Notes: a model not told the origin generated them from the sequence alone. DNA of 35,664 bases from a virus (IMGVR_UViG_3300045988_119994); one strand, 5' to 3'. Positions 1 to 32,724 are shown, counted from the first letter of the stretch. Numbers and translations are program-made.

Positions 1-77
1 ACTTCGAACGTCTGATGGAAGGCGCTAAACTGCTGAAATGTTCAGAGTTTGGTGATGCGATCATCAAGAACATGTAA
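1..77 (+). CDS. icd: isocitrate dehydrogenase, 3' end (partial; 5' part outside window)
   Basis: Frame-3 translation FERLMEGAKLLKCSEFGDAIIKNM* matches the conserved Icd C-terminus as recalled; stop TAA at 75-77; terminator follows. Confidence 0.8.
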   Translation, partial: FERLMEGAKLLKCSEFGDAIIKNM

Positions 78-100
78 TTACTACATGTGTTAAATATTGT

Positions 101-130
101 AACGGGCGTATAACACGCCCGTTGTTTTAT
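101..130 (+). terminator. rho-independent terminator downstream of icd
   Basis: 8-bp stem AACGGGCG / CGCCCGTT (101-108 / 116-123), 7-nt loop, then T-rich GTTTTAT. Confidence 0.6.
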
Positions 131-200
131 GTTAGTACGCTAACGGTTATCAAAATTTTATCAAAATTAGTTATCAAAACCCTTCTGGAAGATTCATGTT

Positions 201-815
201 ATGGACTGCATTTCAAAACAAAAATTCACAATTATTTTAATAGTGGTGTTAATTGCCTTGGGCTGTGCTGCTTATTTTGGAGATGGTGAAGGATATTTTA
301 TAGGTAGCTTTGTGCCTGAATTTACTGGAGTGTGCCTTGAGCTTCTTATTATTTTAAAGGTTTTTGAGGTCTGGCAGCAAAGAGATGAGAAAAGGAAGCT
401 TATTAAGGTTGAAAGACGATTAAGGGAGTTTCTTATTTTCTTTCTGAACCATACGTGCATGGATTTTCCTCCATCCTGCCGTCCAGGGCGTTTTTATGGA
501 ATTGACTATGAGCAAAATCAAAAAGCATTAGAAAAATTAATCAATCATATTGAAGAAAAAGGATTAGCTGAAAATCTTGTTATTCAAGTTCAAATGTATT
601 GTAAGAGTGAATGTCAAATTATAAATAATTTAATCCCAGTTTCTTCTGAGCTTGAAAATGATCACTTTAAATCATGGGTTCGGATTGCCTATTATATGAA
701 TGCCGTTGCTAATGGGCAAGAAAAGGCTAGTGTTGCAATGATTAAAATACTTGAAAATATAAAAAGATTTGATAAGGAATCTCATGATAAAAAACTTTAT
801 GTTGGTGCAAATTAG
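201..815 (+). CDS. hypothetical membrane protein (two N-terminal TM helices plus ~150-aa soluble domain); AT-rich cargo of decayed element
   Basis: 204-aa ORF with ATG at 201; hydrophobic segments at about residues 9-26 and 33-55; visibly AT-rich; no recognisable catalytic motif. Confidence 0.55.
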   Translation: MDCISKQKFTIILIVVLIALGCAAYFGDGEGYFIGSFVPEFTGVCLELLIILKVFEVWQQRDEKRKLIKVERRLREFLIFFLNHTCMDFPPSCRPGRFYGIDYEQNQKALEKLINHIEEKGLAENLVIQVQMYCKSECQIINNLIPVSSELENDHFKSWVRIAYYMNAVANGQEKASVAMIKILENIKRFDKESHDKKLYVGAN

Positions 816-821
816 ATAACA

Positions 822-1083
822 ATAGCTCAGTCTTTCCCTTGGTCATCATAGTGGTGAGCAGTTTGCTACTGGGTCTTATGGCCCAGTAGTTTTCTGGTAT
901 CAACCCCTTGTTCCTTGTAAAGACGCTCAGATAAAGAATTTTGTTCATGAAAAGTTGCTAGAGTTCATGTGCCCTGGTCATTTCCTGCCAAATCCCTCGC
1001 TTTAATGAAATTCACCGTCAACGAATTGGATTTAACCTGTGCACCACGCTCTGTCTGTGAAGTTAAACGGAAAAAATCATGTG
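822..1083 (-). pseudogene. integrase 3' fragment (remnant of an earlier e14-like element)
   Basis: Nucleotide similarity to the 3' ~260 bp of the intact integrase gene (2788-3050) with indels and frame disruptions; no intact ORF; similarity stops near 1083. Confidence 0.7.
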
Positions 1084-1113
1084 TCTAAAACGGATCTATT
1101 TACAGATTGCACT

Positions 1114-1254
1114 AAAGCCGTAGACCTGATTGTTAAAGGTATGGAAGGCGCAATCAACTCCAAGAGCGTAATCTATGACTTCTAACGCTAGATTGAGGTT
1201 ACTAATCTGCTGAAATGTTGAGAGTTTAGTAAATCAATCACAGAAAACATGTAA
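1114..1254 (+). pseudogene. degenerate duplicate of the icd 3' end (icdC-like displaced copy), part of att repeat copy 2
   Basis: Translates as ...[43 protein letters not shown], i.e. Icd C-terminus interrupted by in-frame stops at 1183, 1189 and 1222. Confidence 0.7.
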
Positions 1255-1335
1255 TTCACATTCTGGAATATGTGAGAACGGTAGTCTAGCGGTTCCAGTT
1301 TTTATTATTAGATTTTGAACGGTTATCAAAACAGG
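1114..1335. repeat. att-like direct repeat copy 2 (pseudo-icd 3' end plus AACGGTTATCAAAAC arm at 1318-1332)
   Basis: Same order of elements as copy 1 (icd-like tail, hairpin, GGTTATCAAAA arm), diverged. Confidence 0.55.
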
Positions 1336-1336
1336 T

Positions 1337-1801
1337 TCACTTTGATTCAATTTTGAAACTTTTTTTAACCACTAAAATCATGCAGCTAATCACTTCTGCA
1401 ATGAGGTTAAGAGATAGCACGATAGCAAAAAGTTCTAAAGCAGTAAATAGCTTGCCTTTAGAAGGGATAAATTCGTGCTGAGGATAATTTACTAGTGGTA
1501 TGTCATAATTACGTAAATAGGGAAGGAAGATTGTTACTGCCAGACACATGACCAGTAATTTCAAATCTAATTCTAAACTATCTAAATAGTCCGTAAAGTC
1601 TGTGCTTTTCTCGCCCTTATTAATGACAGCCAAAATTCCGAAGATAACGGAGATACCTGCGGCAATACCTCCAAGTATTGAACCTATTACTCCAGCAGAA
1701 GCCTGCTCAAGTAAGGTATAAATGGTTTTATCAGTCGATGCTAATGCTAAGCACAAAAAGAAGGTAGCTATAGCTTTAATCCAGACAGTTAGATTTTGCA
1801 T
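1337..1801 (-). CDS. small four-TM membrane protein (second gene of cargo operon; candidate effector)
   Basis: 154-aa ORF; four hydrophobic helices (about residues 7-22, 37-60, 81-96, 118-145); start overlaps the upstream gene by 26 nt; AT-rich. Confidence 0.7.
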   Translation of the reverse strand: MQNLTVWIKAIATFFLCLALASTDKTIYTLLEQASAGVIGSILGGIAAGISVIFGILAVINKGEKSTDFTDYLDSLELDLKLLVMCLAVTIFLPYLRNYDIPLVNYPQHEFIPSKGKLFTALELFAIVLSLNLIAEVISCMILVVKKSFKIESK

Positions 1802-2672
1802 TTTTGAACGTATACCTGTTTTGATGTAATGCTATGATCTCTTTAATATCATTTGCTGAGTAGCCATCAAGTTCAATTTCTGATATCTCACCTTCGATCA
1901 GCACGATTTTGGCTGTCTGATTACTGGATACCGTAGTAGATTTTGACTTGAGTGTCTTACGTCCTTTAATCAACCATGACCCGCCACCATCTTTGACCCA
2001 GTCAACAAGAGTCTCAGCCCAATGAGAACCTTTGAGTTTCAAATTGCCATCTTTGTTTTCAAAAATAGTGGTCACAGTATTTGCATTGGTATCTTTTTCA
2101 AGCTTCCGTAAATCATTGGTTAACGCTTGCTTACTGCTTCCGAAGATATTCGGAGTAATCAGCGTAAAGCTGACTTTGTCGATAAATTGAAGCCTATGGT
2201 ATTCTGACCAAAAATCTTCCATTTCAAGACAAGGCTCTATAAATATTCTAAGTCCTAACTGAGCCAAATAGTCGTTATTGGCTAGATCTTCAAACGCTTT
2301 AGCAACTTGTTGCGCATCCTTGAAAACAGCGGTTTTCCTCTCAACCAGTAACACCTGCTCTACTTTGTCCCAAATCCATACGATAGGTGGATAGTTGTCT
2401 ACATCGTACTCTCGAAAGTCTTTATCATGTCCTTTAATCTTTTGCAGCTTTGATATGACTCCAGCCATAACACCATCAGTAGGTTTTATGCTCAATTTCA
2501 GGGTGTAACTAGTTTTCTTATGAACGGAAGGTGTTGATGACGTCATGTGTAAATTTTTTGCAGCGATAACCATAGCATTTTCAAAATGAGAGATATCTTT
2601 CTGAACAGTTCCTTTCGAAAAGAGGTCTGGATCGCGCGGTCTCATTAACACACGTAAGGCATACAACTGCAT
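1776..2672 (-). CDS. hypothetical 298-aa soluble protein (first gene of cargo operon; candidate sensor)
   Basis: ATG at 2672 with AGGAG 7 nt upstream; AT-rich; no HExxH, no GS..DxD nucleotidyltransferase motif and no obvious Walker A; possible D-x8-E-R-K nuclease-like motif is speculative. Confidence 0.7.
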   Translation of the reverse strand: MQLYALRVLMRPRDPDLFSKGTVQKDISHFENAMVIAAKNLHMTSSTPSVHKKTSYTLKLSIKPTDGVMAGVISKLQKIKGHDKDFREYDVDNYPPIVWIWDKVEQVLLVERKTAVFKDAQQVAKAFEDLANNDYLAQLGLRIFIEPCLEMEDFWSEYHRLQFIDKVSFTLITPNIFGSSKQALTNDLRKLEKDTNANTVTTIFENKDGNLKLKGSHWAETLVDWVKDGGGSWLIKGRKTLKSKSTTVSSNQTAKIVLIEGEISEIELDGYSANDIKEIIALHQNRYTFKNAKSNCLD

Positions 2673-2701
2673 AAGAAAACTCCTGTAAACTATTTGGTTT
2701 C

Positions 2702-2776
2702 ATTATTCCATAAAACCAAGCACTTTCAAGAGCTTAATTTTCTTTCAATTCTGTATGCATATACAGTATCATTCAA
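2702..2776 (-). promoter_or_regulatory. candidate sigma70 promoters for the cargo operon (TTGAAT-N17-CAGAAT overlapping the LexA box; TTGAAA-N16-AATAAT downstream)
   Basis: Minus-strand hexamers: -35 at 2771-2776 with -10 at 2748-2753; second pair -35 at 2724-2729 with -10 at 2702-2707. Confidence 0.35.
2751..2766. promoter_or_regulatory. LexA (SOS) box CTGTATGCATATACAG upstream of the cargo operon
   Basis: Exact CTGT-N8-ACAG palindrome with AT-rich centre (6/8 match to ATATATAT); 12 bp downstream of intE stop, 79 bp upstream of the operon start; no other such match found in the intergenic regions checked. Confidence 0.5.
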
Positions 2777-2787
2777 TTTTGTAAAAT

Positions 2788-3915
2788 TCAAACCTTGATT
2801 TTTGCCCATTCCTTACCACGATCATCATGGTATTTAGCTGTCTGGTTAGGCGATTTATGTCCCAGAAGTTTTTGGGTGTCGACGCCCTGAGCTTCGTAAA
2901 GTCGCTCAGATAAAGATCTTTGTTCATGGAATGTGGCGGGCGAACCTTCACCCCAGTCAATGCCTGCTAAATCCCTCGCTTTACTGAAATTCATCGTCAA
3001 TGTATTGGCTTTTACTTGCGCGCCACGTTCAGCCTGTGAAGTAGTACGAAAAAAATGTACAAGGTATGGGCTGACTGCATAGTCACGGCAGCGGGCTACT
3101 ACATCGCGTAAACTCCAGTTAATTGCATTGAGGCGAAGGGAAAGCGGGATGGCGATTTTGCTCCCGGTTTTTTCTTGGATGACGTGAAGATGATCATCCC
3201 AAATATCGCTAAATTTCATACGTGAGATATCACCTAACCGTTGGCCGGTAACCAGTGCTAACAGCATGGCATTCCCCATATAACGATGGCGGGCATCTGC
3301 GATATCAAAGATTTTTTGCCATTCTTCAAGACTTAACCGTTGTCGGGTAATTTTTCTTCTGGGTTGTTTGGTTGCCAGTGCTGGATTATAGCCCGGAGGG
3401 ACTTCCCCATAGTGTTGTGCCTCCTTGAATACATCAATTAGAACGGAGCGGACTACTTGCGCCATCCTCGGTTGCCCGGCAGTGATATACTCGTCAAGTA
3501 ATTGTGCTATATCCCTTACATCAACTGATGAAATTAATTTCATTCCTGCTCGTTCCCTGAGCAAGGATACTGGTTTGGCTTTCTGTTTATAGGTGTTTAG
3601 CTTTATATCGCCACTTTCCAGTCTGTCATCCTGGATTGCTTGATAGCGATCTAACCAGGTTGACGTTGTGATTGCTTTTCCTTTGCTGGTTGCGATCCTG
3701 TCACTGATAGCCAGAATCTGCCGGGTTCTTTGCTCAGCCAGGCGTGAATTTGCCTCAGTGGCAATAGCAATGGCTTCAGCTTCGTTTGTGCCTAAAGAAT
3801 GAAACTTCCCGGTCACTGGATGTTTATATCGCCAATAGACTTTATTTACTTTTCTACTATAAAGCGGATACAAGTTCGGGACTGAAACATTATTTTTACG
3901 TGGTCTGGCTGCCAT
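2788..3915 (-). CDS. intE: tyrosine integrase (lambda-integrase family), e14 IntE-like
   Basis: 375-aa ORF next to the icd-derived att; C-terminal catalytic region with conserved Arg, HxxR (HEQRS) and Tyr (YHDDRG); 5' end overlaps xis by 20 nt; size matches e14 IntE as recalled. Confidence 0.9.
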   Translation of the reverse strand: MAARPRKNNVSVPNLYPLYSRKVNKVYWRYKHPVTGKFHSLGTNEAEAIAIATEANSRLAEQRTRQILAISDRIATSKGKAITTSTWLDRYQAIQDDRLESGDIKLNTYKQKAKPVSLLRERAGMKLISSVDVRDIAQLLDEYITAGQPRMAQVVRSVLIDVFKEAQHYGEVPPGYNPALATKQPRRKITRQRLSLEEWQKIFDIADARHRYMGNAMLLALVTGQRLGDISRMKFSDIWDDHLHVIQEKTGSKIAIPLSLRLNAINWSLRDVVARCRDYAVSPYLVHFFRTTSQAERGAQVKANTLTMNFSKARDLAGIDWGEGSPATFHEQRSLSERLYEAQGVDTQKLLGHKSPNQTAKYHDDRGKEWAKIKV

Positions 3916-4184: not shown

Positions 4185-4733
4185 TTAATTTCGCTGTCTG
4201 GATTGTTTATGCATCTTATGCAGCTCTTTAAAGCGTTCCATAAACATCCCGTAGGCATGGCCCGGTGCCAGTGGAATCACGTTGAACATATCTGTTGCCG
4301 GGATGCCTTCCAGTACAGGCCAGAAAGAGCCATCATCAAGCCCGAGATCGCGGCGTTCGGTTGCCAGCATGATGAGATCGGCATATTTCACGGGCGTACT
4401 CATAACCGGGGGTAACCCGTATTTCTCACGGATTACGGCGTCTATTTTTTCTTCCATCTGTTTATAGTCAGGAAGAAGGCGTTTCAGTGGAGCGGGGATG
4501 TCCTGGCAATACACTTCTGTTGCATCATGCATTAACGCTTCAAAAGCAAATTCCTGCGGTACCAGTTGGCTGCAAAGAACCGCATGTTGGGCGACGCTGT
4601 AGAAGTGTGAAAGATGTCCTGCAAAGCGACAGATATTTGAAAGGGAAAACGCGATATCGTTAATAACGATATCGTCTTTATTTATCCTGTCATAATAAAA
4701 ATGCTTCCCAGAAAAAGTTTTAATAAATGACAT
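4185..4733 (-). CDS. yfdR: HD-domain 5'-deoxynucleotidase, YfdR/YfbR-like
   Basis: SVAQHAV...MHDATEVYCQDIPAP motif (His...HD...E...D) typical of YfbR/YfdR family; ATG at 4733 with GGAGAA SD; 182 aa; synteny with YfdQ- and YfdP-like genes. Confidence 0.75.
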   Translation of the reverse strand: MSFIKTFSGKHFYYDRINKDDIVINDIAFSLSNICRFAGHLSHFYSVAQHAVLCSQLVPQEFAFEALMHDATEVYCQDIPAPLKRLLPDYKQMEEKIDAVIREKYGLPPVMSTPVKYADLIMLATERRDLGLDDGSFWPVLEGIPATDMFNVIPLAPGHAYGMFMERFKELHKMHKQSRQRN

Positions 4734-4827
4734 TTTGTTCTCCACGTTATTTGCGCTGCACCGCACTGAATTCTGGTAAAAGGAAGCCCTCACCATCCGG
4801 CGATTATTGAGTTAATTACGTTTCCAT

Positions 4828-4849
4828 AAATGCCCCCGCAGGGGCATTT
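4828..4849. other. perfect 9-bp hairpin AAATGCCCC-CGCA-GGGGCATTT between yfdQ-like and yfdR-like genes
   Basis: Inverted repeat read directly; no clear U-tract on either strand, so terminator function is uncertain. Confidence 0.45.
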
Positions 4850-4861
4850 GCAGTAATCAAA

Positions 4862-5686
4862 TCAGGCGGTGAAAGTACCAATAAAGGTTTCTACTTTGCT
4901 GTCTTTGAATTTCTCAACAAGCAGATCGCGAAATTCGTTAGCCATTTCTTCCTGCACCGCCTCCAGCTGAATAATGCGCAGAACAAGTACAGGACGATCG
5001 CCAGTGATAATGCTGAGGCGTAATTTAAAAGAACGTTCTTTCAGACCTTCAAACGGAACGCATTTAAATTCAAATGCCACTGGCATAATGTCTTTGGTCT
5101 TCGCTTCGACAGACTCCATCAGGGAGCGTTTGCCGCTGAAGTCATTGTCTTCAAAATCAGCAGTCTGGTTCGCTTCAATTGTGATTTTACGGATCGCCGC
5201 AGCCGCTTTGGTTGCCTGAATGGCGTCACCATTAGCATCAAAGCCCACAAGGTTGTCGGCCCAGTCTTCAATCCATTCTGCCAGTGATTTCTGGGAGTTA
5301 CGCTCGCCGTGAACAGACAACAGAGCAGAGAACGGTGCTGTCTTTTTCAGTTTGAGAGTGGCGGTGTTATCTGCGTGGCCTGGTTCATCAATAGTACCCA
5401 GGTTAAGCACACTGACGGCACGCATATTATCAGCATCGATAAAGCAGCGGGTGCCTTCATCTGCAAGATCTTTAGAATAACGGGTAAAGTCATCAATGCT
5501 GGCAGTGGAAAGCGCACCACGGAAACGGAAGCGATTTAAATTAAATTTTTCCAGGTCATGAATGCGGAAATTCTCAGGCAATGCCACAGCATCGGCACCA
5601 ATCTTACTGATAATTTCATTAACACCCTGAGCAGAAATAAGGGCATGGATTTGATTAATTGCGGTTGCGTCTAAGTTCTGAGACAT
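4862..5686 (-). CDS. yfdQ: conserved prophage early protein, YfdQ-like (DUF2303 family as recalled)
   Basis: 274-aa ORF, GAGGA SD upstream of ATG at 5686; size and position between YfdP-like and YfdR-like genes match the CPS-53 yfdP-yfdQ-yfdR arrangement; identification from memory. Confidence 0.65.
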
Positions 5687-5751
5687 AATAAGTCCTCACT
5701 ATATAAAGATATTCAGTGATGAGATAAATAATCAGTTAATTAAAAACGATA

Positions 5752-13098: not shown

Positions 13099-14094
13099 GT
13101 GACCGTGAGAGCACTACTGACCCCTGAAATAGCCCCGCGTATGGGGATCGTATTGTTCAGACCAGGTTCAGAGCTGATGCCCCTGTTTATGCAGGGGCGT
13201 GTACTGCTGGAGCCTGAGCCGGAACGTTATTCATCTTTCGCCAGTGGTGCCGTTCCCGCGGCATCACAACCGCTGGCGGATGATCCTGCTGTTCGGGCCG
13301 TGTTCCGCAATGAGGCAGTGATCCGTCGTGCTGGTGGCGTAGAATGTCTTGAAAGCTGGTTACTTCGTGAAAAAGGCTGCCAGTGGCCTCATTCCGACTG
13401 GCACAGCGAGAACATGACCACAATGCGACACGCTCCGGGCGCAATCCGTCTGTGCTGGCACTGTGATAACCAGCTGCGCGATCAGTTCACGGAACGGCTG
13501 GAATCAATGGCAACGGATAACTGTGCCCGCTGGGTGTTGTCTGTTGTGCGTCGGGATCTCGGTTTTGATGATAGTCACGTTGTGACAATGCCGGAACTGT
13601 GCTGGTGGCTGATTCGTAATGACCTGGCGGATGCCTTACCGGAAAGTGCAGCCCGTAAGGCACTGAGATTACCAAAGCCTGTTGTGCCGTCTGTCACCCG
13701 GGAAAGTGACCTTGTGCCTTCGGTTCCTGCCACCAGCATCATCCAGGATAAGGCAAAAAAGGTGCTGGCGCTGAAAGTGGATCCGGAGTCGCCGGAGTCT
13801 TTTATGTTACGCCCAAAACGTCGCCGCTGGGTTAATGAAAAGTACACGCGCTGGGTTAAGACACAGCCGTGTGCATGTTGTGGAAAGCCCGCTGATGATC
13901 CCCACCACCTGATAGGCCACGGTCAGGGGGGAATGGGTACAAAAGCGCATGACCTCTTTGTGTTGCCTTTGTGCAGAAAGCATCACGACGAGCTGCATGC
14001 GGATACCGTGGCATTTGAAGAGAAGTATGGCTCCCAGCTGGAGCTGATATTTCGTTTTATCGATCGTGCGCTGGAAATAGGCGTGCTGGCCTGA
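13099..14094 (+). CDS. DUF968 family phage protein (YdfU-like)
   Basis: 331 aa; Cys/His-rich C-terminus (CACCGKP...HHLIGHG...CRKHHDELH); family recalled from prophage Qin; start may be GTG at 13105. Confidence 0.65.
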   Translation: MTVRALLTPEIAPRMGIVLFRPGSELMPLFMQGRVLLEPEPERYSSFASGAVPAASQPLADDPAVRAVFRNEAVIRRAGGVECLESWLLREKGCQWPHSDWHSENMTTMRHAPGAIRLCWHCDNQLRDQFTERLESMATDNCARWVLSVVRRDLGFDDSHVVTMPELCWWLIRNDLADALPESAARKALRLPKPVVPSVTRESDLVPSVPATSIIQDKAKKVLALKVDPESPESFMLRPKRRRWVNEKYTRWVKTQPCACCGKPADDPHHLIGHGQGGMGTKAHDLFVLPLCRKHHDELHADTVAFEEKYGSQLELIFRFIDRALEIGVLA

Positions 14095-14111
14095 TTTTGT
14101 GGAGAAATTTG

Positions 14112-14477
14112 ATGCGTGATATTCAGATCATCCTTGAACGTTGGGGGGCATGGGCAGCTAGTGATAGCTCAGGAGTGGACTATTCGCCTATAGCTGCTGG
14201 GTTTAAGGGACTTCTTCCCTATACCAGTAAGGCACGCCAAGCTTGTTCAGATAATGATGCGCTAATTATTGAAAGTTGCTTGGAGCAACTAAAAAAAAGA
14301 AAACCTTATGAGCATTCTCTACTGGTTGCGCATTATTTGTACGGGTTTTCAAAGCGGAAGATTGCCAAAGTACAAGGAAAGGATGAGAAATTAATCCGTA
14401 TAGAAATATTGTTAGCAGAGGGATTCATTGATGGTTGCCTTTCTACTCTCGATATTCATTTAGATATGGAGTTATAA
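14112..14477 (+). CDS. late-gene antiterminator Q (QuuD-like)
   Basis: MRDIQIILERWGAWAA... N-terminus matches QuuD-type antiterminators as recalled; GGAGA SD. Confidence 0.8.
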   Translation: MRDIQIILERWGAWAASDSSGVDYSPIAAGFKGLLPYTSKARQACSDNDALIIESCLEQLKKRKPYEHSLLVAHYLYGFSKRKIAKVQGKDEKLIRIEILLAEGFIDGCLSTLDIHLDMEL

Positions 14478-14487
14478 TAAAAAATAA

Positions 14488-14512
14488 CCCCGTAAACTTT
14501 ATGTTTACGGGG
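14488..14512. terminator. bidirectional terminator between convergent Q and TIR genes
   Basis: Perfect 10-bp stem CCCCGTAAAC / GTTTACGGGG, 5-nt loop, A-tract upstream and T-tract downstream. Confidence 0.6.
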
Positions 14513-14517
14513 GAAGG

Positions 14518-15333
14518 TTATTTCTTTTTTTTATTACTTTCAGATAATCGTTGGTTTAATGTGTATTTTATTTGGTTCCTAATCATTTTTTCAGGAATGT
14601 CATATTTGTCTAAGAATGATATTATTTCATCCTCGTCAAGCAATCCATTCTTTATAATTTCATCTATCTGTTTTTGTAGATACCAAACATCCTTCTGTTC
14701 TACAGGAGTTAAATTCATATGGCTATTTATGGAGTTGATAGTAGCATCACGTTCAAGAACTCTAATCCTTTGATTTAATGAACGAGTGTTTTGTAATATT
14801 TCAGATAAAAGATCTTGTTCAGTACGTGGTTTTACTTCTTCAGTTGGAGGGTATTGATCTAAAGCTCGTTTAAAATTGTTTTCAAATTGCTCCCAGTATG
14901 TATTAAAAACTTGCTTTAGAATACGGTCATCTAAAGATTTATCGACAAGACAATTGTTTATTGTCCTTACTAATTCCCAAACACTCTCTTTATTTGGCGT
15001 TGTGTGATTGAATTGAGCAAGTGGATCTTTTAAATCTTCTGGTTTTAAGTCAATCAAGAATGTACAAACTTTATTTGTTGAAAGTCCTTTTGCTAGTGCT
15101 CCTGTTTCAAACAAAATCCATGGTTTATTTTTATTTTCTTGTGTCAAACATACAATTCCGACAGATACATCTTTTAATTTATCATTAATTTCAGAGAACC
15201 ATATAGCGCCACGATCAATATCTCTGGTTGAAATCCATGGCTGCGAAGCTTGGATAACACACTTCAGCCAGTCGCTAATAAGTTCTGCAACAGCTTGACT
15301 TCTTTGCCCAGACCAACTTATGAACACTTTCAT
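14518..15333 (-). CDS. TIR-domain protein (N-terminal TIR-like domain plus ~170-aa helical C-terminal domain); AT-rich moron
   Basis: From ATG at 15333 (GGAG SD 6 nt upstream): MKVFISWSGQRS... then PWILFETGA with Trp-x3-Glu; markedly AT-rich; opposite strand to late operon. Confidence 0.8.
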   Translation of the reverse strand: MKVFISWSGQRSQAVAELISDWLKCVIQASQPWISTRDIDRGAIWFSEINDKLKDVSVGIVCLTQENKNKPWILFETGALAKGLSTNKVCTFLIDLKPEDLKDPLAQFNHTTPNKESVWELVRTINNCLVDKSLDDRILKQVFNTYWEQFENNFKRALDQYPPTEEVKPRTEQDLLSEILQNTRSLNQRIRVLERDATINSINSHMNLTPVEQKDVWYLQKQIDEIIKNGLLDEDEIISFLDKYDIPEKMIRNQIKYTLNQRLSESNKKKK

Positions 15334-15457
15334 TATGTACTCCATGTAATCACTCAAAAGGAACTGAAATTTACATTAAAAATTAAATAAAATCACTCAC
15401 GCGGTCCGCAGAAACCATTGTAATCTGTTATGAGTGGTTACTTCGCCACACAACTTA

Positions 15458-15486
15458 AACCCGCCGTCGAGCGGGTTTTGTCGTTT
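15458..15486 (+). terminator. tR'-like terminator in the late promoter region
   Basis: Stem ACCCGC / GCGGGT (15459-15464 / 15471-15476), loop CGTCGA, then TTTGTCGTTTC. Confidence 0.4.
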
Positions 15487-15630
15487 CTGGTCCTAGGGAT
15501 TAATTGCTTCTGCCCTATCCCGCAGTTATCCATTGGCTCGGCTTCTTTTACGTTTCCGCTTCTGATTTGCGGTTCGTGGTACACCCTCAATTTGCACCTC
15601 CTTTATCGGCGAGGTGAGAGATAACTACAA

Positions 15631-25386: not shown

Positions 25387-25557
25387 ATGTTTGTCAAACC
25401 TGTTAAAGGGCGGTCAGTGCCTGACCCTGCCCGCGGCGACCTTTTGCCCGCCGAAGGGCGAAATGTTGACGAGAACAACTACTGGCTGCGCCGTGAAGCA
25501 GCGGGTGATATCCGGCGCGTGAATAAAAAGGTGAACACCGATGACGATAAGCTTTAA
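25387..25557 (+). CDS. small protein preceding tail sheath (DUF2635-like, tentative)
   Basis: 56-aa ORF not in the track (MFVKPVKGRSVPDPARGDLLPAEGRNVDENNYWLRREAAGDIRRVNKKVNTDDDKL); GAGGA SD 6 nt upstream; overlaps sheath start. Confidence 0.45.
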   Translation: MFVKPVKGRSVPDPARGDLLPAEGRNVDENNYWLRREAAGDIRRVNKKVNTDDDKL

Positions 25558-27037
25558 CACCATTCCGTCGAATACGCTGGTTCCGTTGTTTTATGCGGAA
25601 ATGGATAACCAGGCGGCGAATACTGCACAGGACAGCGGAGCATCGCTGCTGATTGGTCATGCCAATAACGGTGCAGAGATTGTTGCCAACAGTCTGGTAC
25701 TGATGCCGTCGGCAGACTATGCACGCCAGATTTGTGGTGCGGGAAGTCAGCTGGCGCGTATGGTCGAGGCTTATCGCCAGACTGACCCGTTTGGCGAGCT
25801 GTATGTGATTGCCGTTCCTGAATCCACAGGCGCGGCGGCAACGGTTACGCTGACGGTGACCGGGGAAGCAACCGAAAGCGGCACGGTGAATGTCTATGTG
25901 GGACGTACCCGCGTGCAGGCTCCGGTGACCAACGGCGATAACGTCACGACGATTGCCAGCAGTATCCAGGATGCCATCAATGCCGTTCCGACTCTGCCGT
26001 TTACAGCTTCATCTTCGGCTGGTGTTGTCACGCTGACCGCGCGTCATAAGGGGCTTTGCGGGAATGAAGTTCCTGTCAGCCTCAATTACTACGGCTTCGG
26101 TGGGGGTGAAGTGCTGCCAGCGGGCGTACAGATTGCCGTGGCGACGGGGACCGCCGGAACGGGTGCTCCGGTTCTCACCGGCGCGGTGGCTGCAATGGCG
26201 GATGAGCCGTTTGATTATATCGGTCTGCCGTTCAACGACACGGCCTCCGTTAACACGCTGGTGACCGAGATGAACGATACCAGCGGTCGCTGGAGCTATG
26301 CGCGTCAGCTGTATGGTCATGTGTATACGGCAAAGACCGGCACACTGTCAGAACTGGTGAACGCAGGTGACCAGTTTAACCAGCAGCACATCACCCTGGC
26401 GGGGTACGAAAAAGAGACCCAGACGCCTGCCGACGAGCTGGCGGCAAGCCGTACCGCCCGCGCAGCGGTGTTTATCCGCAACGATCCGGCACGTCCCACG
26501 CAGACCGGTGAGCTGGTGGGGATGCTGCCTGCGCCGAAGGGGAAACGGTTCACGATGACCGAGCAGCAGACCCTGCTGTCTCATGGCGTGGCAACGGCGT
26601 ATGTCGAAAGCGGGGGGCTGCGCATTCAGCGTGATGTCACCACGTACAGGAAAAATGCTTACGGGGTTGCGGATAACAGCTACCTCGACAGCGAGACGCT
26701 GCATACCAGTGCGTATGTACTGCGCAAACTGAAATCCGTCATTACCAGTAAGTACGGGCGTCACAAGCTTGCCAGCGACGGTACCCGCTTTGGTCCCGGT
26801 CAGGCGATTGTTACCCCGGCGGTAATCAAAGGGGAACTGCTGGCAACCTACCGTCAGCTTGAGCGTGCGGGGATCGTGGAAAACTACGAACTGTTTAAGC
26901 AGTACCTGGTTGTTGAGCGTGATGCCAGCGATCCGAACCGCCTGAACACGCTGTTCCCGCCTGACTATGTTAACCAGTTGCGTGTTTTTGCCGTGGTTAA
27001 CCAGTTCCGTCTTCAGTATTCAGAGGAGTCTGCATAA
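25541..27037 (+). CDS. tail sheath protein (contractile tail, Mu gpL-like)
   Basis: 498 aa; position before tube and chaperone genes; family recalled. Confidence 0.9.
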   Translation: MTISFNTIPSNTLVPLFYAEMDNQAANTAQDSGASLLIGHANNGAEIVANSLVLMPSADYARQICGAGSQLARMVEAYRQTDPFGELYVIAVPESTGAAATVTLTVTGEATESGTVNVYVGRTRVQAPVTNGDNVTTIASSIQDAINAVPTLPFTASSSAGVVTLTARHKGLCGNEVPVSLNYYGFGGGEVLPAGVQIAVATGTAGTGAPVLTGAVAAMADEPFDYIGLPFNDTASVNTLVTEMNDTSGRWSYARQLYGHVYTAKTGTLSELVNAGDQFNQQHITLAGYEKETQTPADELAASRTARAAVFIRNDPARPTQTGELVGMLPAPKGKRFTMTEQQTLLSHGVATAYVESGGLRIQRDVTTYRKNAYGVADNSYLDSETLHTSAYVLRKLKSVITSKYGRHKLASDGTRFGPGQAIVTPAVIKGELLATYRQLERAGIVENYELFKQYLVVERDASDPNRLNTLFPPDYVNQLRVFAVVNQFRLQYSEESA

Positions 27038-27393
27038 TGGCCCGTATCGGGGGAACCTGTTATTTCAAAATTGACGGTCAGCAGCTATCGCTGACCGGCG
27101 GCATTGAGGTGCCCATGAACAGGACGGTCAATGATGACATCATCGGCCTGGACGGTTCAGTGGACCGCAAGGAAACTCACCGTGCGCCTTATGTCAAAGG
27201 GACCTTCAAGGTGCCGAAGAATTTTCCGGTGAGCAAAATCACCTCGTCTGATGAGATGACCATCACTGCCGAGCTGGCGAACGGTCAGGTCTATGTATTG
27301 TCGTCCGCCTGGCTGCACGGCGAAGCGAACCATAATGCCGAAGAAGGCACGGTTGATCTTGAGTTCCACGGTGAAGAAGGGGATTACCAGTAA
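27037..27393 (+). CDS. tail tube protein (Mu gpM-like)
   Basis: 118 aa directly after sheath with ATGA overlap. Confidence 0.85.
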   Translation: MARIGGTCYFKIDGQQLSLTGGIEVPMNRTVNDDIIGLDGSVDRKETHRAPYVKGTFKVPKNFPVSKITSSDEMTITAELANGQVYVLSSAWLHGEANHNAEEGTVDLEFHGEEGDYQ

Positions 27394-27662: not shown

Positions 27663-27811
27663 CGGCTGAATACCTCACTGATCGCTTCTTTGACTGCGCC
27701 AGCTACTGGCGCATTAATCCCTTCGAATTGCTGAATATGCCGATCAGTGAAATTCCCTTGCTGGTCAGTCAGGCAAACAGGATAGAGCAGGAGAAACGCA
27801 CACATGGCTGA
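27629..27811 (+). CDS. tail assembly chaperone, -1 frameshift extension
   Basis: ORF in the -1 frame overlapping the chaperone 3' end and running to the tape-measure start; reached via T_TTT_TTC at 27644-27650. Confidence 0.6.
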   Translation: MACGWFFPPGLTAEYLTDRFFDCASYWRINPFELLNMPISEIPLLVSQANRIEQEKRTHG

Positions 27812-29636
27812 ATTTGAGCTTAAGGCGTTGATCACCGGTGTCGACAGGCTTTCTCCCGCGCTGTCGAAAATGCAAAAGAAAATCCGGGGATTTAAACGCC
27901 AGGCGGAAGAAGCGTCACAGGGTGGGCTGGCGCTTGGTGGCGGACTGGCAGCGGGGCTGACGCTTTCCCTGAAATCTTATGCCGATCAGGAAAACGCCGC
28001 TACCGGGCTGAAAGTCGCCATGATGGATGCGAACGGCGAGGTTGGAAAGAGCTTTCAGGACATCAATAAACTGGCTATTGGCCTGGGTAACCAGCTACCC
28101 GGTACAACGGCTGATTTCCAGAACATGATGCAGATGCTGGTGCGTCAGGGGATCCCGGCAGAAAACATTCTGGGTGGTGTGGGTAAAGCGACAGCTTATC
28201 TTGCGGTACAACTGAAAAAAACACCGGAAGCGGCTGCCGAGTTTGCCGCAAAGATGCAGGATGCTACCGGAACGGCCTCAGAAGACATGATGGGGCTGTT
28301 CGACACAATTCAGAAGGCGTTTTATCTGGGCGTTGACGACACCAACATGCTGTCATTCTTCACTAAAACCAGCTCTGTTCTGAAGATGGTGAATAAGGAC
28401 GGTCTTCAGGCTGCACAGAGTCTTGCCCCCATCAGTGTCATGATGGATCAGATGGGGATGAACGGGGAGTCGGCAGGTAATGCCCTGCGAAAAGTTATCC
28501 AGTCCGGATTAAGCGTTAAGAAAATCAGGGACGTCAATAAAGTCATGGCCCGCCAGAAACTCGGGGTACAGCTCGATTTTACTGACGGCAAAGGAAGTTT
28601 TGGCGGTCTTGATAACATGTTCAGGCAACTGGCAAAGTTGCGAAAACTGACCGACGTTAAGCGAACAGGCGTACTTAAGGCAATATTTGGTGATGATGCC
28701 GAAACCCTTCAGGTGGTCAATGCGCTGATCGATAAAGGAAAGGATGGCTACGATCAGATCCAGCAGAAGATGAATAAACAGGCCAGCCTGAATAAACGTG
28801 TTCAGGCTCAGCTTGGTACGCTGTCCAACCTGTGGGAGGCAATGACGGGGACCGCAACTAACGGCCTTGCGGCTATTGGCGGCGCATTTTCTGGTGACGC
28901 TAAGAACATCACGCAGTGGCTGGGGGAGTTGGGGGAGAAATTCACGAAGTTTGCGGATGAAAATCCCCGGGTTATTCGCGGCGTCGTCGGGCTTGCTGCC
29001 GGTCTTGCGATTCTGAAACTGGGATTGATGGGCGTGGGCAGTGCCATCAGCATTGTCAGCAGGATCATGTCGATGACGCCGATTGGCATGATTGCGACGG
29101 CGATAGCCCTGGCTGCGGGATTAATTATCACCAACTGGGATGTTGTCGGACCTTATTTCAAGAAGCTCTGGGAAACCATTGGTCCTTATTTTGAGGCTGG
29201 CTGGGAACTCCTTAAGAAAGTTTTTGCCTGGTCGCCGCTGGGGATGGTGATCAATAACTGGGGGCCGGTTGTTAAGTGGTTTCAGGATATGTGGGACAAG
29301 CTGAAGCCAATTATTGAGTGGTTTATCGACAGTTCCGGTGACACGGTCGATGCCATTAACTCTGCGCAGTGGGGCGCGGGTGCTTATGATGCTTATGGGA
29401 CGGGAATACCGCCACGGGGATACACTCCTTATCCGGAGGTGGATCCGGCTCAGGCAAACAACGCCTCCGGTGCCACAGGTCCGAATCCCTTCATGATTAA
29501 TAAAGCTACCGCGCCAAAAGTTGATGGTGAGATCAAGGTATCATTTATAAATATGCCACCAGGTATGCGGGTTACGGAAACACGCTCCAGTGGCATTGAT
29601 ATAAATCACGATGTTGGCTATACCCGATTTTGGTAG
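27804..29636 (+). CDS. tail tape measure protein
   Basis: 610 aa, helical N-terminus, Gly/Ala-rich hydrophobic central segments; position. Confidence 0.9.
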   Translation: MAEFELKALITGVDRLSPALSKMQKKIRGFKRQAEEASQGGLALGGGLAAGLTLSLKSYADQENAATGLKVAMMDANGEVGKSFQDINKLAIGLGNQLPGTTADFQNMMQMLVRQGIPAENILGGVGKATAYLAVQLKKTPEAAAEFAAKMQDATGTASEDMMGLFDTIQKAFYLGVDDTNMLSFFTKTSSVLKMVNKDGLQAAQSLAPISVMMDQMGMNGESAGNALRKVIQSGLSVKKIRDVNKVMARQKLGVQLDFTDGKGSFGGLDNMFRQLAKLRKLTDVKRTGVLKAIFGDDAETLQVVNALIDKGKDGYDQIQQKMNKQASLNKRVQAQLGTLSNLWEAMTGTATNGLAAIGGAFSGDAKNITQWLGELGEKFTKFADENPRVIRGVVGLAAGLAILKLGLMGVGSAISIVSRIMSMTPIGMIATAIALAAGLIITNWDVVGPYFKKLWETIGPYFEAGWELLKKVFAWSPLGMVINNWGPVVKWFQDMWDKLKPIIEWFIDSSGDTVDAINSAQWGAGAYDAYGTGIPPRGYTPYPEVDPAQANNASGATGPNPFMINKATAPKVDGEIKVSFINMPPGMRVTETRSSGIDINHDVGYTRFW

Positions 29637-29664
29637 CCAGGATTCCCCTCACAGGTATTGCTGG

Positions 29665-29692
29665 TTGTAAGTCATAAATAGAGTGATAGAAT
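29665..29692 (+). promoter_or_regulatory. candidate sigma70 promoter of the tail-module moron (TTGTAA-N16-TAGAAT)
   Basis: -35 at 29665-29670, -10 at 29687-29692, 36 bp upstream of the moron ATG. Confidence 0.4.
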
Positions 29693-29727
29693 TAATGCAC
29701 ATTTAGAAAAATGTTAATAGGCGAAAA

Positions 29728-30258
29728 ATGAAAGGCTATATCACAGCAAGTGTAATTCTTGGAGTGGCGGCTATTTTTTCATCTCTCATAATCTCTGGCA
29801 ACATCTCCTTTAAAGATGAACATATTATTCAGTTATCTGGAGGAGCCATAAAACTTGGTGATGTTTATAAAGAAAATAAATTGATAAGTGCAAAGATTAT
29901 TTTTCCAGATAATCAGGGTGAACAGATTCTTGTTGTCGACGGCAATCCTGAAAACTTTAAGGAGGATTTTCAGGAGAAATTAAATAAAGTAATAAAAACT
30001 TTAAATGCGTCAAAGAAAAAAGATGAAGAGAAAGTTAGCCTGGATAATTTAAGTGTTATTGAAGAGTCTAAACTAGAGCTCGTTTCTGCGGTGCGTTACT
30101 CTGCTCAGTATGTTCCTATGTTTACTCTGACGCTGGACAAAAAAGAAATTACCATGCCTAAAAATACGGTAATATTTCCATTTGCCAGCGATGAAACAGC
30201 TAAGTATTTAAATGAACAACAGCAAAAGTATAAAGATTCGTTGTTTCTGACTCGCTAA
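29728..30258 (+). CDS. hypothetical membrane-anchored protein (AT-rich moron inside tail module)
   Basis: 176 aa; single N-terminal hydrophobic helix; AT-rich; own promoter and terminator. Confidence 0.6.
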   Translation: MKGYITASVILGVAAIFSSLIISGNISFKDEHIIQLSGGAIKLGDVYKENKLISAKIIFPDNQGEQILVVDGNPENFKEDFQEKLNKVIKTLNASKKKDEEKVSLDNLSVIEESKLELVSAVRYSAQYVPMFTLTLDKKEITMPKNTVIFPFASDETAKYLNEQQQKYKDSLFLTR

Positions 30259-30276
30259 TTAATAAAATTCATTACA

Positions 30277-30305
30277 AGGCCACCTTCTAATAGGTGGCTT
30301 TTTAA
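30277..30305 (+). terminator. rho-independent terminator after the moron
   Basis: Stem GCCACC / GGTGGC (30279-30284 / 30293-30298), loop TTCTAATA, then TTTTTAATTTT. Confidence 0.6.
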
Positions 30306-30319
30306 TTTTCGGAGTATAT

Positions 30320-31648
30320 ATGACGTGGAAAGACAGACTTCAGGACGCGTCATTTCGCGGTGTGCCGTTTAAGGTTGAAGAAGAAAGTGCGGGAACCGGT
30401 CGTCGTGTGGAAACACATGAATACCCGAACCGCGACAAGCCCTATACCGAAGACCTGGGGAAAATCACTTTCCGCCCGTCCATCACGGCTTATGTGGTGG
30501 GAGATGACTGCTTTGACCAGCGCGATCGCCTGATTGACGCGCTGAATAAACCCGGTCCCGGCACGCTTGTCCATCCGACTTACGGTGAGCTGAAAGTCTG
30601 TGTTGACGGAGAGGTTCGGGTCAGCACATCGAAGAGTGAAGGGCGTATTGTCCGCTTTGACCTGAAGTTTGTCGAAGCGGGAGAACTCTCTTACCCCACA
30701 TCAGGTGCGGCGACGGCGCAGACGCTGATGTCATCCTGTTCTGCACTGGATGACTGCATCAGTGACAGCTTCAGCGGTTTCAGTATTGATGGCGTGGCGG
30801 ATTTTGTGCAGAACGACGTTATCGGTAATGCCAGCACAATGCTGGGGTATGTTTCTGATGCGATGAAAGTGGTGGATTCTGCCGTATCGGATGCCGCCAG
30901 GCTGTTGCAGGGGGATATCTCGGTACTTCTGCCGCCGCCATCGTCAGGCAAAAATTTTGTTGAGCAGGTGCAGAAAATGTGGCGTACCGGGAAGCACCTT
31001 TATGGTAACGCCAGCGACCTGGTCACCATGATCAAAACGCTTTCTGGTGTCAGCCTCGGCAGCGATCTGCAACCGCGCGGCGTCTGGAAAACGGACAGTA
31101 AAACCACCGCCACGGCGACGCAGCAGCGTAACGTGGTTGCCAGCACCCTTCGTACGACCGCAATCAGCGAAGCGGCGTATGCCGTCACCCGATTGCCTGC
31201 GCCAACAACTTCCGCGGTGATGCAGAATGCTGCAGTGGGGCAGTCAACAACACCCGCGCAGAGCACCGGCTGGCCTTCCGTCACGCATCCGGCACTGAAC
31301 AATGCACCGGCGGTGAAAAACACGGTTGACCTGCCAACGTGGGAGGAACTGACCGACATTCGCGACACACTGAATACGGCAATTGATAAGGAGTTGTCCC
31401 GTACAACCAGTGATGCGCTATTTCTGGCGCTGCGCCGGGTGAAAGCAGATCTGAATGCGGATATCAACACGCGCCTTGAACAGTCTGCACGGATCATTCA
31501 GCGCACGCCGGATGAGGTTTTACCCGCGCTGGTGCTGGCGGCGACCTGGTTTGATAACGCGGCGCGTGACGCGGACATTATCCGGCGTAATGCCATTAAA
31601 CATCCCGGCTTTGTGCCGGTGATCCCTCTGAAGGTGCCAGTGCAATGA
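30320..31648 (+). CDS. DNA circularisation protein (Mu gpN-like)
   Basis: 442 aa; MTWKDRLQDASFRGVPFKVEE... N-terminus typical of Mu N family as recalled. Confidence 0.8.
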   Translation: MTWKDRLQDASFRGVPFKVEEESAGTGRRVETHEYPNRDKPYTEDLGKITFRPSITAYVVGDDCFDQRDRLIDALNKPGPGTLVHPTYGELKVCVDGEVRVSTSKSEGRIVRFDLKFVEAGELSYPTSGAATAQTLMSSCSALDDCISDSFSGFSIDGVADFVQNDVIGNASTMLGYVSDAMKVVDSAVSDAARLLQGDISVLLPPPSSGKNFVEQVQKMWRTGKHLYGNASDLVTMIKTLSGVSLGSDLQPRGVWKTDSKTTATATQQRNVVASTLRTTAISEAAYAVTRLPAPTTSAVMQNAAVGQSTTPAQSTGWPSVTHPALNNAPAVKNTVDLPTWEELTDIRDTLNTAIDKELSRTTSDALFLALRRVKADLNADINTRLEQSARIIQRTPDEVLPALVLAATWFDNAARDADIIRRNAIKHPGFVPVIPLKVPVQ

Positions 31649-32724
31649 ACGATAACGTCACGCTACGGGTAAATGGCCGGGAGTGGAATGGCTGGACATC
31701 GGTGCGCATCGGTGCCGGTATTGAACGGCTGGCGCGGGATTTCAGTGTGGAGATCACCCGCCAGTGGCCGGGAGATGAGGGTATCACCACGCTTCAGCCG
31801 CGCATTAAAAACGGTTCAAAAGTGGAAGTGCTGATTGGTGATGAGCTGGTGATCACTGGCTGGGTGGAGGCGACGCCCGTTCGTTACGATGCCCGTTCGG
31901 TCAGCACCGGTATTGCCGGACGCAGTCTGACCGCTGACCTGATTGACTGTGCAGCCGAACCGACACAGTTTAACGGACGATCGCTGGTACAGATTGCGCA
32001 GGCGCTTGCTGCGCCTTTCGGCATTGAGGTGGTGAACAACGGTGCGCCGTCGGGTGTTATTCCTGACGTCCAGCCTGATCACGGTGAAACGGTGATTGAG
32101 GTAATCAACAAAATACTCGGTCAGCAGCAGGCACTGGCTTACGACGATCCGCACGGCAGGCTGGTGATTGGCGGTATTGGCTCAACGCGGGCACATACCG
32201 CGCTGGTACTTGGGGAAAACATCCTTTCCTGTGATACGGAGAAGAGTATCCGGGAGCGGTTTTCAGTTTACCAGGTGGCGGGGCAGCGTGCCGGAAACGA
32301 CGATGATTTCGGTGAGGCCACCACCACCGCGCTGCGGGCCCGCACAGAGGACGCATTTATTGCCCGTTACCGTCCGATGTATATCAGGCAGACAGGGCAG
32401 GCCACGGGGGCAGGCTGTATTGCGCGTGCTGACTTTGAAGCCCGACAACGGGCGGCGCGGACGGATGAAACCACCTATGTGGTGCAGGGCTGGCGACAGG
32501 GTAACGGTACGCTGTGGCAGCCCAATCAGCGGGTGATTGTCTTCGATCCGGTCTGTGGTTTCGACAATACCGAACTGCTTGTCTCGGAAGTCACGTTTAC
32601 TCAGGACCAGAACGGCACCCTGACGGAAATCCGTGTCGGCCCACCTGATGCTTATCTGCCTGAACCCGAAGCCCCCGGCGCGCGGAAAAAGAAAAAAGCC
32701 AGAGTACAGGAGGACCCGTTCTGA
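31645..32724 (+). CDS. baseplate hub protein (Mu gpP / gp44-like)
   Basis: 359 aa; position after the gpN-like gene. Confidence 0.8.
   Translation: MNDNVTLRVNGREWNGWTSVRIGAGIERLARDFSVEITRQWPGDEGITTLQPRIKNGSKVEVLIGDELVITGWVEATPVRYDARSVSTGIAGRSLTADLIDCAAEPTQFNGRSLVQIAQALAAPFGIEVVNNGAPSGVIPDVQPDHGETVIEVINKILGQQQALAYDDPHGRLVIGGIGSTRAHTALVLGENILSCDTEKSIRERFSVYQVAGQRAGNDDDFGEATTTALRARTEDAFIARYRPMYIRQTGQATGAGCIARADFEARQRAARTDETTYVVQGWRQGNGTLWQPNQRVIVFDPVCGFDNTELLVSEVTFTQDQNGTLTEIRVGPPDAYLPEPEAPGARKKKKARVQEDPF

Follow-up and report, generated by a model that had tools for sequence, protein, structure and literature searches.

A probable single-gene moron in a variable slot of the SfV/e14-like tail operon encodes a predicted inner-membrane-tethered protein of an uncharacterised family

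Results

Anatomy of the cassette

The viral sequence IMGVR_UViG_3300045988_119994 (35,664 nucleotides, analysed over its full length and referred to as the window) is a nearly complete prophage at icd, the site of e14, and belongs to the e14/SfV-like myovirus type. Between its tape-measure gene and the gene encoding the gpN-like DNA-circularisation protein resides a short AT-rich cassette with a single open reading frame (ORF), which is the subject of this study. The features of the cassette and the two genes flanking it are the following.

27804-29636, + strand: tape-measure protein gene, left flank of the slot (PF10145, E 9.8e-27)
29637-30319, + strand: whole AT-rich cassette (putative moron) filling the slot between the tape-measure and gpN genes, 683 bases
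29665-29692, + strand: predicted sigma-70 promoter TTGTAA-N16-TAGAAT with TG extended -10 (promoter scan, 9/12 matches)
29719-29721, + strand: weak Shine-Dalgarno-like AGG, 6 nucleotides 5' of the ATG (sequence inspection)
29728-30258, + strand: ORF, 176 amino acids, ATG start (phrog_5485, unknown function, E 6e-108, residues 1-176 on profile positions 1-176)
29740-29796, + strand: codons of the single predicted N-terminal transmembrane helix, residues ~5-23 (hydrophobic 19-mer, mean Kyte-Doolittle value 2.23)
29815-30255, + strand: predicted periplasmic domain, consisting of a beta-hairpin (residues 33-42, GxVxLGxVYxE) and a beta-beta-alpha-beta-beta-alpha two-layer sandwich
30276-30311, + strand: intrinsic-terminator-like hairpin (30276-30301, 10 pairs) with T-rich tail, directly 5' of the gpN ribosome-binding site GGAG (30311-30314)
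30320-31648, + strand: DNA_circ_N/gpN-like tail/DNA circularisation gene, right flank of the slot (PF07157, E 6.4e-34)

A preliminary description of this DNA had proposed a self-contained, AT-rich moron at this position, equipped with a near-consensus promoter and a terminator of its own. With respect to position and composition this was confirmed: the GC content is 0.32-0.37 across 29600-30350 compared with 0.52-0.60 on both sides, and the cassette is the sole AT-rich island in the late region from 16 to 35.6 kb. The proposed promoter sequence is present, but with nine of twelve matching positions the term 'near-consensus' is generous. The promoter scan returned 4 sites in 6 kb where 3.9 were expected from shuffled sequences, and the match therefore carries no evidential weight alone. 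Promoter-like sites occur upstream of the homologous genes in three of five loci (L018, L020 and L021), at positions which are not identical, and no site exceeded the threshold in L004 and L022. Another promoter-like sequence on the minus strand within the ORF (29801-29773, TTGCCA-17-AAAAAT with TG) probably arose by chance from the AT-rich sequence. As for translation, the homologous cassettes have a GAG or AGG at a position similar to that of the AGG in front of the start codon.

The hairpin and T-tract terminator was likewise confirmed. The hairpin, which is followed by the T-run TTAATTTT, folds at -17 kcal/mol (z = -6.2), and none of 200 shuffled sequences folded as well. A hairpin with a T-run in front of the gpN ribosome-binding site was also found in all five homologous cassettes (5/5), in the unrelated cassette of phage SKA5 and in the empty site of phage SfII (L001 2153-2191; -14.8 kcal/mol), where the depositors labelled it a putative rho-independent terminator; the stems differ and the position is fixed. 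Since the hairpin is present in the empty site as well, the terminator belongs to the slot no less than to the insert, and an intra-operon terminator thus represents a conserved feature of this tail operon, with cargo or without. No RNA family of Rfam was detected anywhere in the window.

The cassette is dispensable for tails and occupies a variable slot

The survey of Escherichia coli comprised 5,426 complete genomes, of which 1,096 carry the junction of tape-measure and gpN genes. The cassette was found in 174 of these 1,096, and every full-length E. coli copy (176/176) is flanked by the same tape-measure and gpN genes. It is absent from SfI, SfII, SfV, SfIV and vB_EcoM-689R6, in which the two tail genes are ~20-60 nucleotides apart. 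The flanks in these five phages are ~95% identical to those of the cassette, and a query of 2,001 bases across the cassette aligned with SfI, SfII, SfV and vB_EcoM-689R6 in two pieces only 1,380 bases apart, showing that the tape-measure gene runs almost straight into gpN; in SfIV the 3' end of the tape-measure gene differs, and again no gene lies between it and gpN. When the ORF product and one distant member of its family were compared with 50,697 phage records by tblastn, no match was obtained. SfI has been isolated as an infectious virion with a contractile tail (PMC3636060), which shows that tails can do without the cassette. In E. coli, most prophages having the junction lack the cassette, which is at odds with the universal conservation expected for a structural or assembly role in Mu-like tails. 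Conservation as a structural gene in all related tails, an outcome that according to the preliminary description would speak against a moron, is thereby ruled out, and the presence of the cassette in a minority of genomes, its absence from the Sf phages and its replacement by unrelated cassettes support the moron reading.

This replacement involves four unrelated cassette types, the ORF under study and three others. In phage SKA5 (L002) and 85 genomes the same slot harbors an unrelated ORF with a signal peptide (phrog_8976), which is annotated with 170 amino acids and has 164 if read from an in-frame ATG six codons downstream. A 225-residue lipoprotein with an LLGGC lipobox (phrog_1353) occupies the slot in 55 genomes, and in 79 genomes the slot contains, on the opposite strand, a gene for a transmembrane-anchored OB-fold protein (PF12869) that matches phrog_8545, labeled 'superinfection exclusion Sie-like', with an E-value of 1.5e-49. 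Loci examined for these alternative cassettes were L008, L009, L010 and L011 from E. coli prophages in addition to that of SKA5; in L008 the OB-fold gene lacks the N-terminal anchor. All four cargo types are small envelope-targeted proteins. Together they occur in ~400 of the 5,426 complete E. coli genomes, roughly 7%. In alignments of the junctions, homology among the slot variants ends at the last tape-measure codons and sets in again with the T-run and ribosome-binding site in front of gpN; boundaries at the flanking tail genes are the outcome expected of homologous recombination in those genes. In the papers searchable here, e14/SfV-like phages are not described as having a cargo hotspot between the tape-measure and gpN genes.

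A different position in the tail module was noticed in Leclercia-type prophages (L004 10013-11808; also L005-L007 and L021), where two extra ORFs of 503-520 and 94 amino acids lie between gpN and the gpP-like hub gene. They have no Pfam match and a GC content of 0.41-0.49 in the 3' part, and the region may constitute another cargo position in the tail module.

The ORF product belongs to a family of predicted membrane-tethered periplasmic proteins

The function of the ORF had been left as unrecognised in the preliminary description, which in the literal sense still applies. The ORF product matches the profile of phrog_5485; no match was obtained in Pfam (E <= 0.1) or NCBIfam, none of the families of PADLOC-DB v2 matched at E <= 1, and there was no match to any PHROG annotated as exclusion and no YebO-type Pfam match. 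A profile search against the PDB gave nothing below an E-value of 0.6, and thus no fold relative in that database. A word-indexed search returned 23 relatives, which comprise E. coli copies of ~99% identity and sequences from Leclercia and Lelliottia with 52-57% identity, while 1.84 billion cluster representatives, searched exhaustively with a HMMER profile, yielded 77 family representatives, nearly all with a length of ~175 amino acids. A profile scan of contigs with one family alignment confirmed no locus. When Pfam was searched with all 57 family members of the alignment, only scattered single chance matches appeared. Among these 57 sequences the full length is conserved down to ~20% identity. 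A conserved block with the pattern N-[IV]-x4-G-x-V-x-L-G-x-V-Y-x-E follows immediately after the hydrophobic segment, and the residues G39, L43, G44, E49, Y124 and L134 are invariant or nearly so.

With regard to topology, the single N-terminal anchor and the lack of a lipobox cysteine noted in the preliminary description were both verified. The ORF product has hydrophobic residues at positions 5-23, no second hydrophobic segment and no cysteine at all, and therefore no lipobox. The same applies family-wide: the 57 members have one N-terminal hydrophobic 19-mer with a mean Kyte-Doolittle value of 2.14 and no second one, and a lipobox pattern occurs in only one of them (1/57). The mean net charge of the family is +0.98 before and -0.65 after the hydrophobic segment. 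The charge bias, the single segment and the missing lipobox together predict a signal anchor that is not cleaved, leaving the N-terminus inside and the C-terminal part in the periplasm. Thus, the ORF product would be a type II bitopic inner-membrane protein with a cytoplasmic N-terminus and an alpha/beta domain of ~145 amino acids predicted to reside in the periplasm.

Structural modeling by AlphaFold was poor with an alignment of 13 sequences, reaching a mean predicted local distance difference test (pLDDT) value of 64.9, and confident when 57 sequences were supplied, with a pLDDT of 91.7 and a predicted template-modeling (pTM) score of 0.76. The model consists of the transmembrane helix (residues 2-23), the beta-hairpin (33-42), strands 46-58 and 65-72, a helix (74-93), strands 114-126 and 132-143, and a C-terminal helix (149-171). 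In BFVD the sole significant match to this model was a 144-residue 'Lipoprotein' of Pseudomonas phage ventosus (E 7e-7, template-modeling score 0.66), which, as modeled, is the same fold on a different periplasmic tether.

The cassette is old and polymorphic, and its family is confined to mobile elements

In prophages of Leclercia an orthologue with 52-55% identity resides in the same slot, in cassettes with a GC content of 34-37% and a terminator at the 3' end. The flanking genes have diverged between Leclercia and E. coli, with 68% identity for gpN and 36% overall for the tape-measure protein, the C-terminal third of which is highly conserved. We conclude that the cassette has a long history in this phage lineage and is polymorphic, as opposed to having been inserted once and recently. 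As judged by comparison of its coding sequences, the family is under purifying selection, with pairwise ratios of nonsynonymous to synonymous substitution rates (dN/dS) of 0.04-0.15 where dS could be estimated, dS being near saturation.

In Lelliottia amnigena (L020 2810-3581) only ~770 bp of an e14/SfV-like prophage are left beside icd. The remnant consists of the intact cassette together with its terminator and ~190 nucleotides from the 3' end of the tape-measure gene, and a TTGTCA-17-GAAAAT site is located upstream. The intact state of this lone copy after loss of the prophage is suggestive, though not proof, of expression on its own and of an advantage for the host.

More distant homologues (~24% identity), from Pseudomonas-like and metagenomic genomes, are located in accessory regions of small integrative elements. 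One of these (L012 3173-14541), which has integrated into an FKBP-type gene, encodes an Mrr nuclease and a resolvase along with a large serine recombinase and the family member; another (L016 6935-15462) combines a DUF5906 primase and a resolvase with a tyrosine integrase. The distant homologue of either element adjoins a resolvase of 188-189 amino acids and another secreted or membrane ORF. A 180-residue gene upstream of the Pseudomonas homologue was considered as a paralogue and rejected (hhalign probability 0.3%). The family has been found only on phages and small mobile elements.

The prophage and its other accessory regions

In the late region of the prophage, a head module of the HK97 type precedes a contractile tail module of the Mu type. 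Further features of the window to which we refer are listed below.

14097-14477, + strand: Q antiterminator gene (PF06530, E 9.6e-49)
25541-27037: sheath gene
27037-27393: tube gene
31645-32724: gene for gpP-like baseplate hub, with more baseplate genes downstream

The phage is of the SfV/SfI/SfII/e14 type. E. coli strain E4 (NZ_CP104516) harbors a prophage with 99.95% identity to the window except at 4687-5734, the sole segment which is unlike the E4 prophage and where E4 has an insertion sequence, IS1. The presence of this IS1 in the window was rejected, as the window departs from E4 exactly at that point. The Q homologue of this near-identical prophage is labeled 'antiterminator Q family protein' by PGAP.

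A candidate defence gene of the TIR-TM type (14518-15333, - strand; PADLOC PDLC03016, E 1.7e-57; Pfam TIR_2) constitutes a second moron of the window. It is located on the opposite strand between Q and the holin gene, within an AT-rich island (14000-15500, GC 0.31-0.42); the position between Q and the lysis genes has been called a moron in phage SfIV (PMC3851460). Another AT-rich block (window 1-3000, GC 0.34-0.39) lies between the icd 3' end with attL and the integrase gene. It contains hypothetical ORFs at 201-815 (+), 1337-1801 (-) and 1776-2672 (-) that have no match in Pfam or PADLOC, and is probably further prophage cargo.

The cassette was also encountered in five records designated as plasmids, three of which, with 35-38 kb, match the size of a whole circular phage genome. 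One of them, NZ_CP081716.1 (L023, strain CX04), is a 37.7-kb circular 'non-mobilisable plasmid' record that represents a whole SfV/e14-like phage genome with the cassette, which suggests that the prophage excises or replicates in culture; the copy of the ORF in this record is frameshifted and annotated with 104 amino acids. CP088862.1 (35.4 kb) carries the cassette as well and is of similar size. A plasmid-borne cassette was rejected, as the 'plasmid' matches are whole phage genomes or large replicons.

Discussion

Our analysis identified the region 29637-30319 as, with little doubt, moron or accessory cargo of the prophage. It shows three of the properties by which morons have been defined by Juhala and Hendrix, namely presence in some relatives and absence from others, distinct composition and an own terminator. 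For an own promoter, another of these properties, there is a candidate site at chance level, with indirect support from the lone Lelliottia copy and from the opposite-strand cassette of the slot. The locus is best classed as a moron of the tail operon, with a product from an uncharacterised family without a solved fold relative. As the best overall explanation we propose a single-gene moron in a variable slot that mediates superinfection exclusion at the envelope, and we assign to this explanation as a whole a rough probability of 0.45. The functional part, exclusion by the ORF product at the envelope, is put forward tentatively and by analogy, at somewhat short of even odds.

Envelope-level exclusion is understood through a few examples, such as HK97 gp15, P22 SieA, T4 Imm and Sp, and Ltp. 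Among these, gp15 is the closest in genetic setting, and the work on this moron reportedly goes back to Juhala et al. 2000 and Cumby et al. 2012. Like the ORF studied here, whose localisation is predicted, gp15 is a small inner-membrane protein encoded by a single-gene moron of foreign composition that adjoins the tape-measure gene in a Q-antiterminated late tail operon. The first moron to be described, it integrates into the inner membrane and keeps phage genomes from entering, an effect that depends on the tail of the incoming phage (PMC3594210). The differences are, however, considerable. gp15 belongs to the YebO family and has no sequence relation to the ORF; its gene lies upstream of the tape-measure gene (between the tape-measure and chaperone genes, PMC3594210), whereas the ORF is located downstream; gp15 is small, whereas the ORF product has 176 amino acids with a folded periplasmic domain of ~145 residues as predicted; HK97 is a siphovirus, while the phage considered here has a contractile, Mu-like tail; and exclusion has been shown for gp15 but would be an extrapolation for the ORF. 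P22 SieA and other inner-membrane exclusion proteins (PMC10883804) are similarly prophage-encoded and have been proposed to block the trans-envelope DNA conduit, but the ORF has no homology to Sie-annotated PHROGs, sieA lies outside the tail operon, and topology and size differ. More generally, no homology between the ORF family and any known exclusion protein was detected in Pfam or PHROG.

Among the cargo of the slot itself, the phrog_8545 OB-fold proteins (PF12869) share with the ORF product an N-terminal transmembrane anchor and a small extracytoplasmic domain. They differ in fold (OB versus beta-beta-alpha-beta-beta-alpha sandwich) and strand and show no sequence similarity. The lipoprotein exclusion factors, among them lambdoid Cor, T5 Llp and Ltp from S. 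thermophilus phages, are likewise small envelope-tethered phage proteins, and the sole fold relative of the ORF product is labeled a lipoprotein. The ORF product, in contrast, has neither a cysteine nor a lipobox and is predicted to be anchored in the inner membrane by a transmembrane helix; it is therefore unlikely to mask an outer-membrane receptor. With respect to the slot, the moron positions of P2 (PMC3573123) and the Q-lysis moron of SfIV (PMC3851460) similarly are fixed intergenic positions with alternative, unrelated accessory genes. Unlike at P2-type hotspots, the cargo between tape-measure and gpN genes consists of single small envelope proteins and not of multi-gene cytoplasmic defence systems.

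In the explanation proposed here, homologous recombination within the conserved tail genes on both sides fills or empties the slot or exchanges its content. During late expression, polymerase modified by Q would probably carry transcription across the slot terminator, in analogy to lambda and HK97. Such read-through would explain how insertions are tolerated without cutting off the baseplate genes. The cassette gene itself might be transcribed autonomously, and its product, tethered to the membrane, could interfere by its periplasmic domain with the tail-tip/tape-measure apparatus of an incoming phage as this apparatus crosses the periplasm and inner membrane. Genome delivery would then be blocked, as it is by HK97 gp15 and P22 SieA, and the lysogen, possibly also the lytically infected cell, would be protected.

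Several observations weigh against this explanation. The promoter match is at chance level and its position is not conserved in the homologous cassettes, and the ORF might therefore be transcribed mainly with the late operon. Some copies of the ORF are frameshifted or truncated (including P0004 and P0019). The 'Sie-like' label of the OB-fold cassette is a database annotation and not a tested function, and a literature search with the RefSeq accession WP_000679483 retrieved no paper. Finally, envelope morons do other things too, as exemplified by Bor, Lom and Cor.

The last point leads to the alternative that survives best. Instead of excluding phages, the ORF product could be an envelope factor of lysogenic conversion or host fitness, for example a periplasmic inhibitor or immunity-like protein directed against colicins, type VI secretion systems or peptidoglycan-targeting effectors, or a stress, serum or colonisation factor like lambda Bor and Lom. 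The same anatomy, a moron under purifying selection with an inner-membrane-tethered periplasmic domain, fits this explanation equally, any host benefit would account for the lone gene kept after prophage loss in Lelliottia, and morons with diverse envelope roles are known (PMC3594210). Phage-phage conflict is favoured over such a role because one of the slot co-occupants is labeled Sie-like, a candidate defence gene resides at the other moron site of the prophage, the family is found only on phages and small mobile elements, and searches of Pfam, NCBIfam and the PDB linked the ORF to no known family of immunity or virulence factors. A host-fitness factor is the less expected outcome, and we consider it rather unlikely.

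A less probable alternative concerns the time of expression. The gene could lack a promoter of its own and act as a lytic-cycle accessory from the Q-antiterminated tail-operon transcript, preventing progeny from injecting into lysing cells or debris or modulating lysis, which would place it closer to T5 Llp or T4 Imm and Sp. The gene is indeed co-oriented with the tail operon in every SfV-like prophage carrying a family member, the promoter is at chance level and below the scan threshold in L004 and L022, and a Q gene is present. However, the lone Lelliottia copy is intact without a late operon and has a promoter-like sequence (TTGTCA-17-GAAAAT) just upstream, distant homologues reside in non-phage integrative elements, and the OB-fold occupant of the slot, being on the opposite strand, must have its own promoter. 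We therefore regard a purely late role as improbable. Least probable is a dispensable or selfish hitch-hiker that serves no selected function, or else a sub-lineage-specific protein with a minor part in tail assembly or structure: the frameshifted or truncated copies (P0004, P0019) and the lack of an assigned function would be compatible with it, but the dN/dS values, the full-length conservation across 57 sequences with a confidently predicted fold, the infectious relatives that do without the cassette and hence do not need it for their tails, and the fact that a signal-anchored periplasmic protein cannot enter cytoplasmic tail assembly all argue against it.

If envelope superinfection exclusion is accepted as the preferred explanation, a more far-reaching version of it might be speculated. 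The ORF would be the founding member of a new family of inner-membrane-tethered periplasmic superinfection-exclusion proteins with a novel fold, which would stop contractile-tailed temperate phages by binding their tape-measure/gpN tail-tip complex as this complex emerges in the periplasm, and the slot would be an undescribed hotspot of interchangeable single-gene envelope shields of at least four types. In this specific form we hold the proposal to be doubtful.

A specialist would not be surprised by the locus as such, and should the function prove to be a different one, the cassette would be a routine moron of unknown function. It is, at the same time, a clean candidate locus for new exclusion factors acting at the envelope, and one that can be tested easily. 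The slot provides a natural isogenic comparison set, in which one and the same tail operon is either empty or equipped with one of four small envelope proteins. If the ORF product or its slot-mates block genome delivery, new protein families would be added to the exclusion repertoire. Such activity, if confirmed, would offer an approach to the passage of Mu-type tails through the periplasm, and could help to explain strain-level phage resistance that is missed by catalogues of receptors and defence systems.

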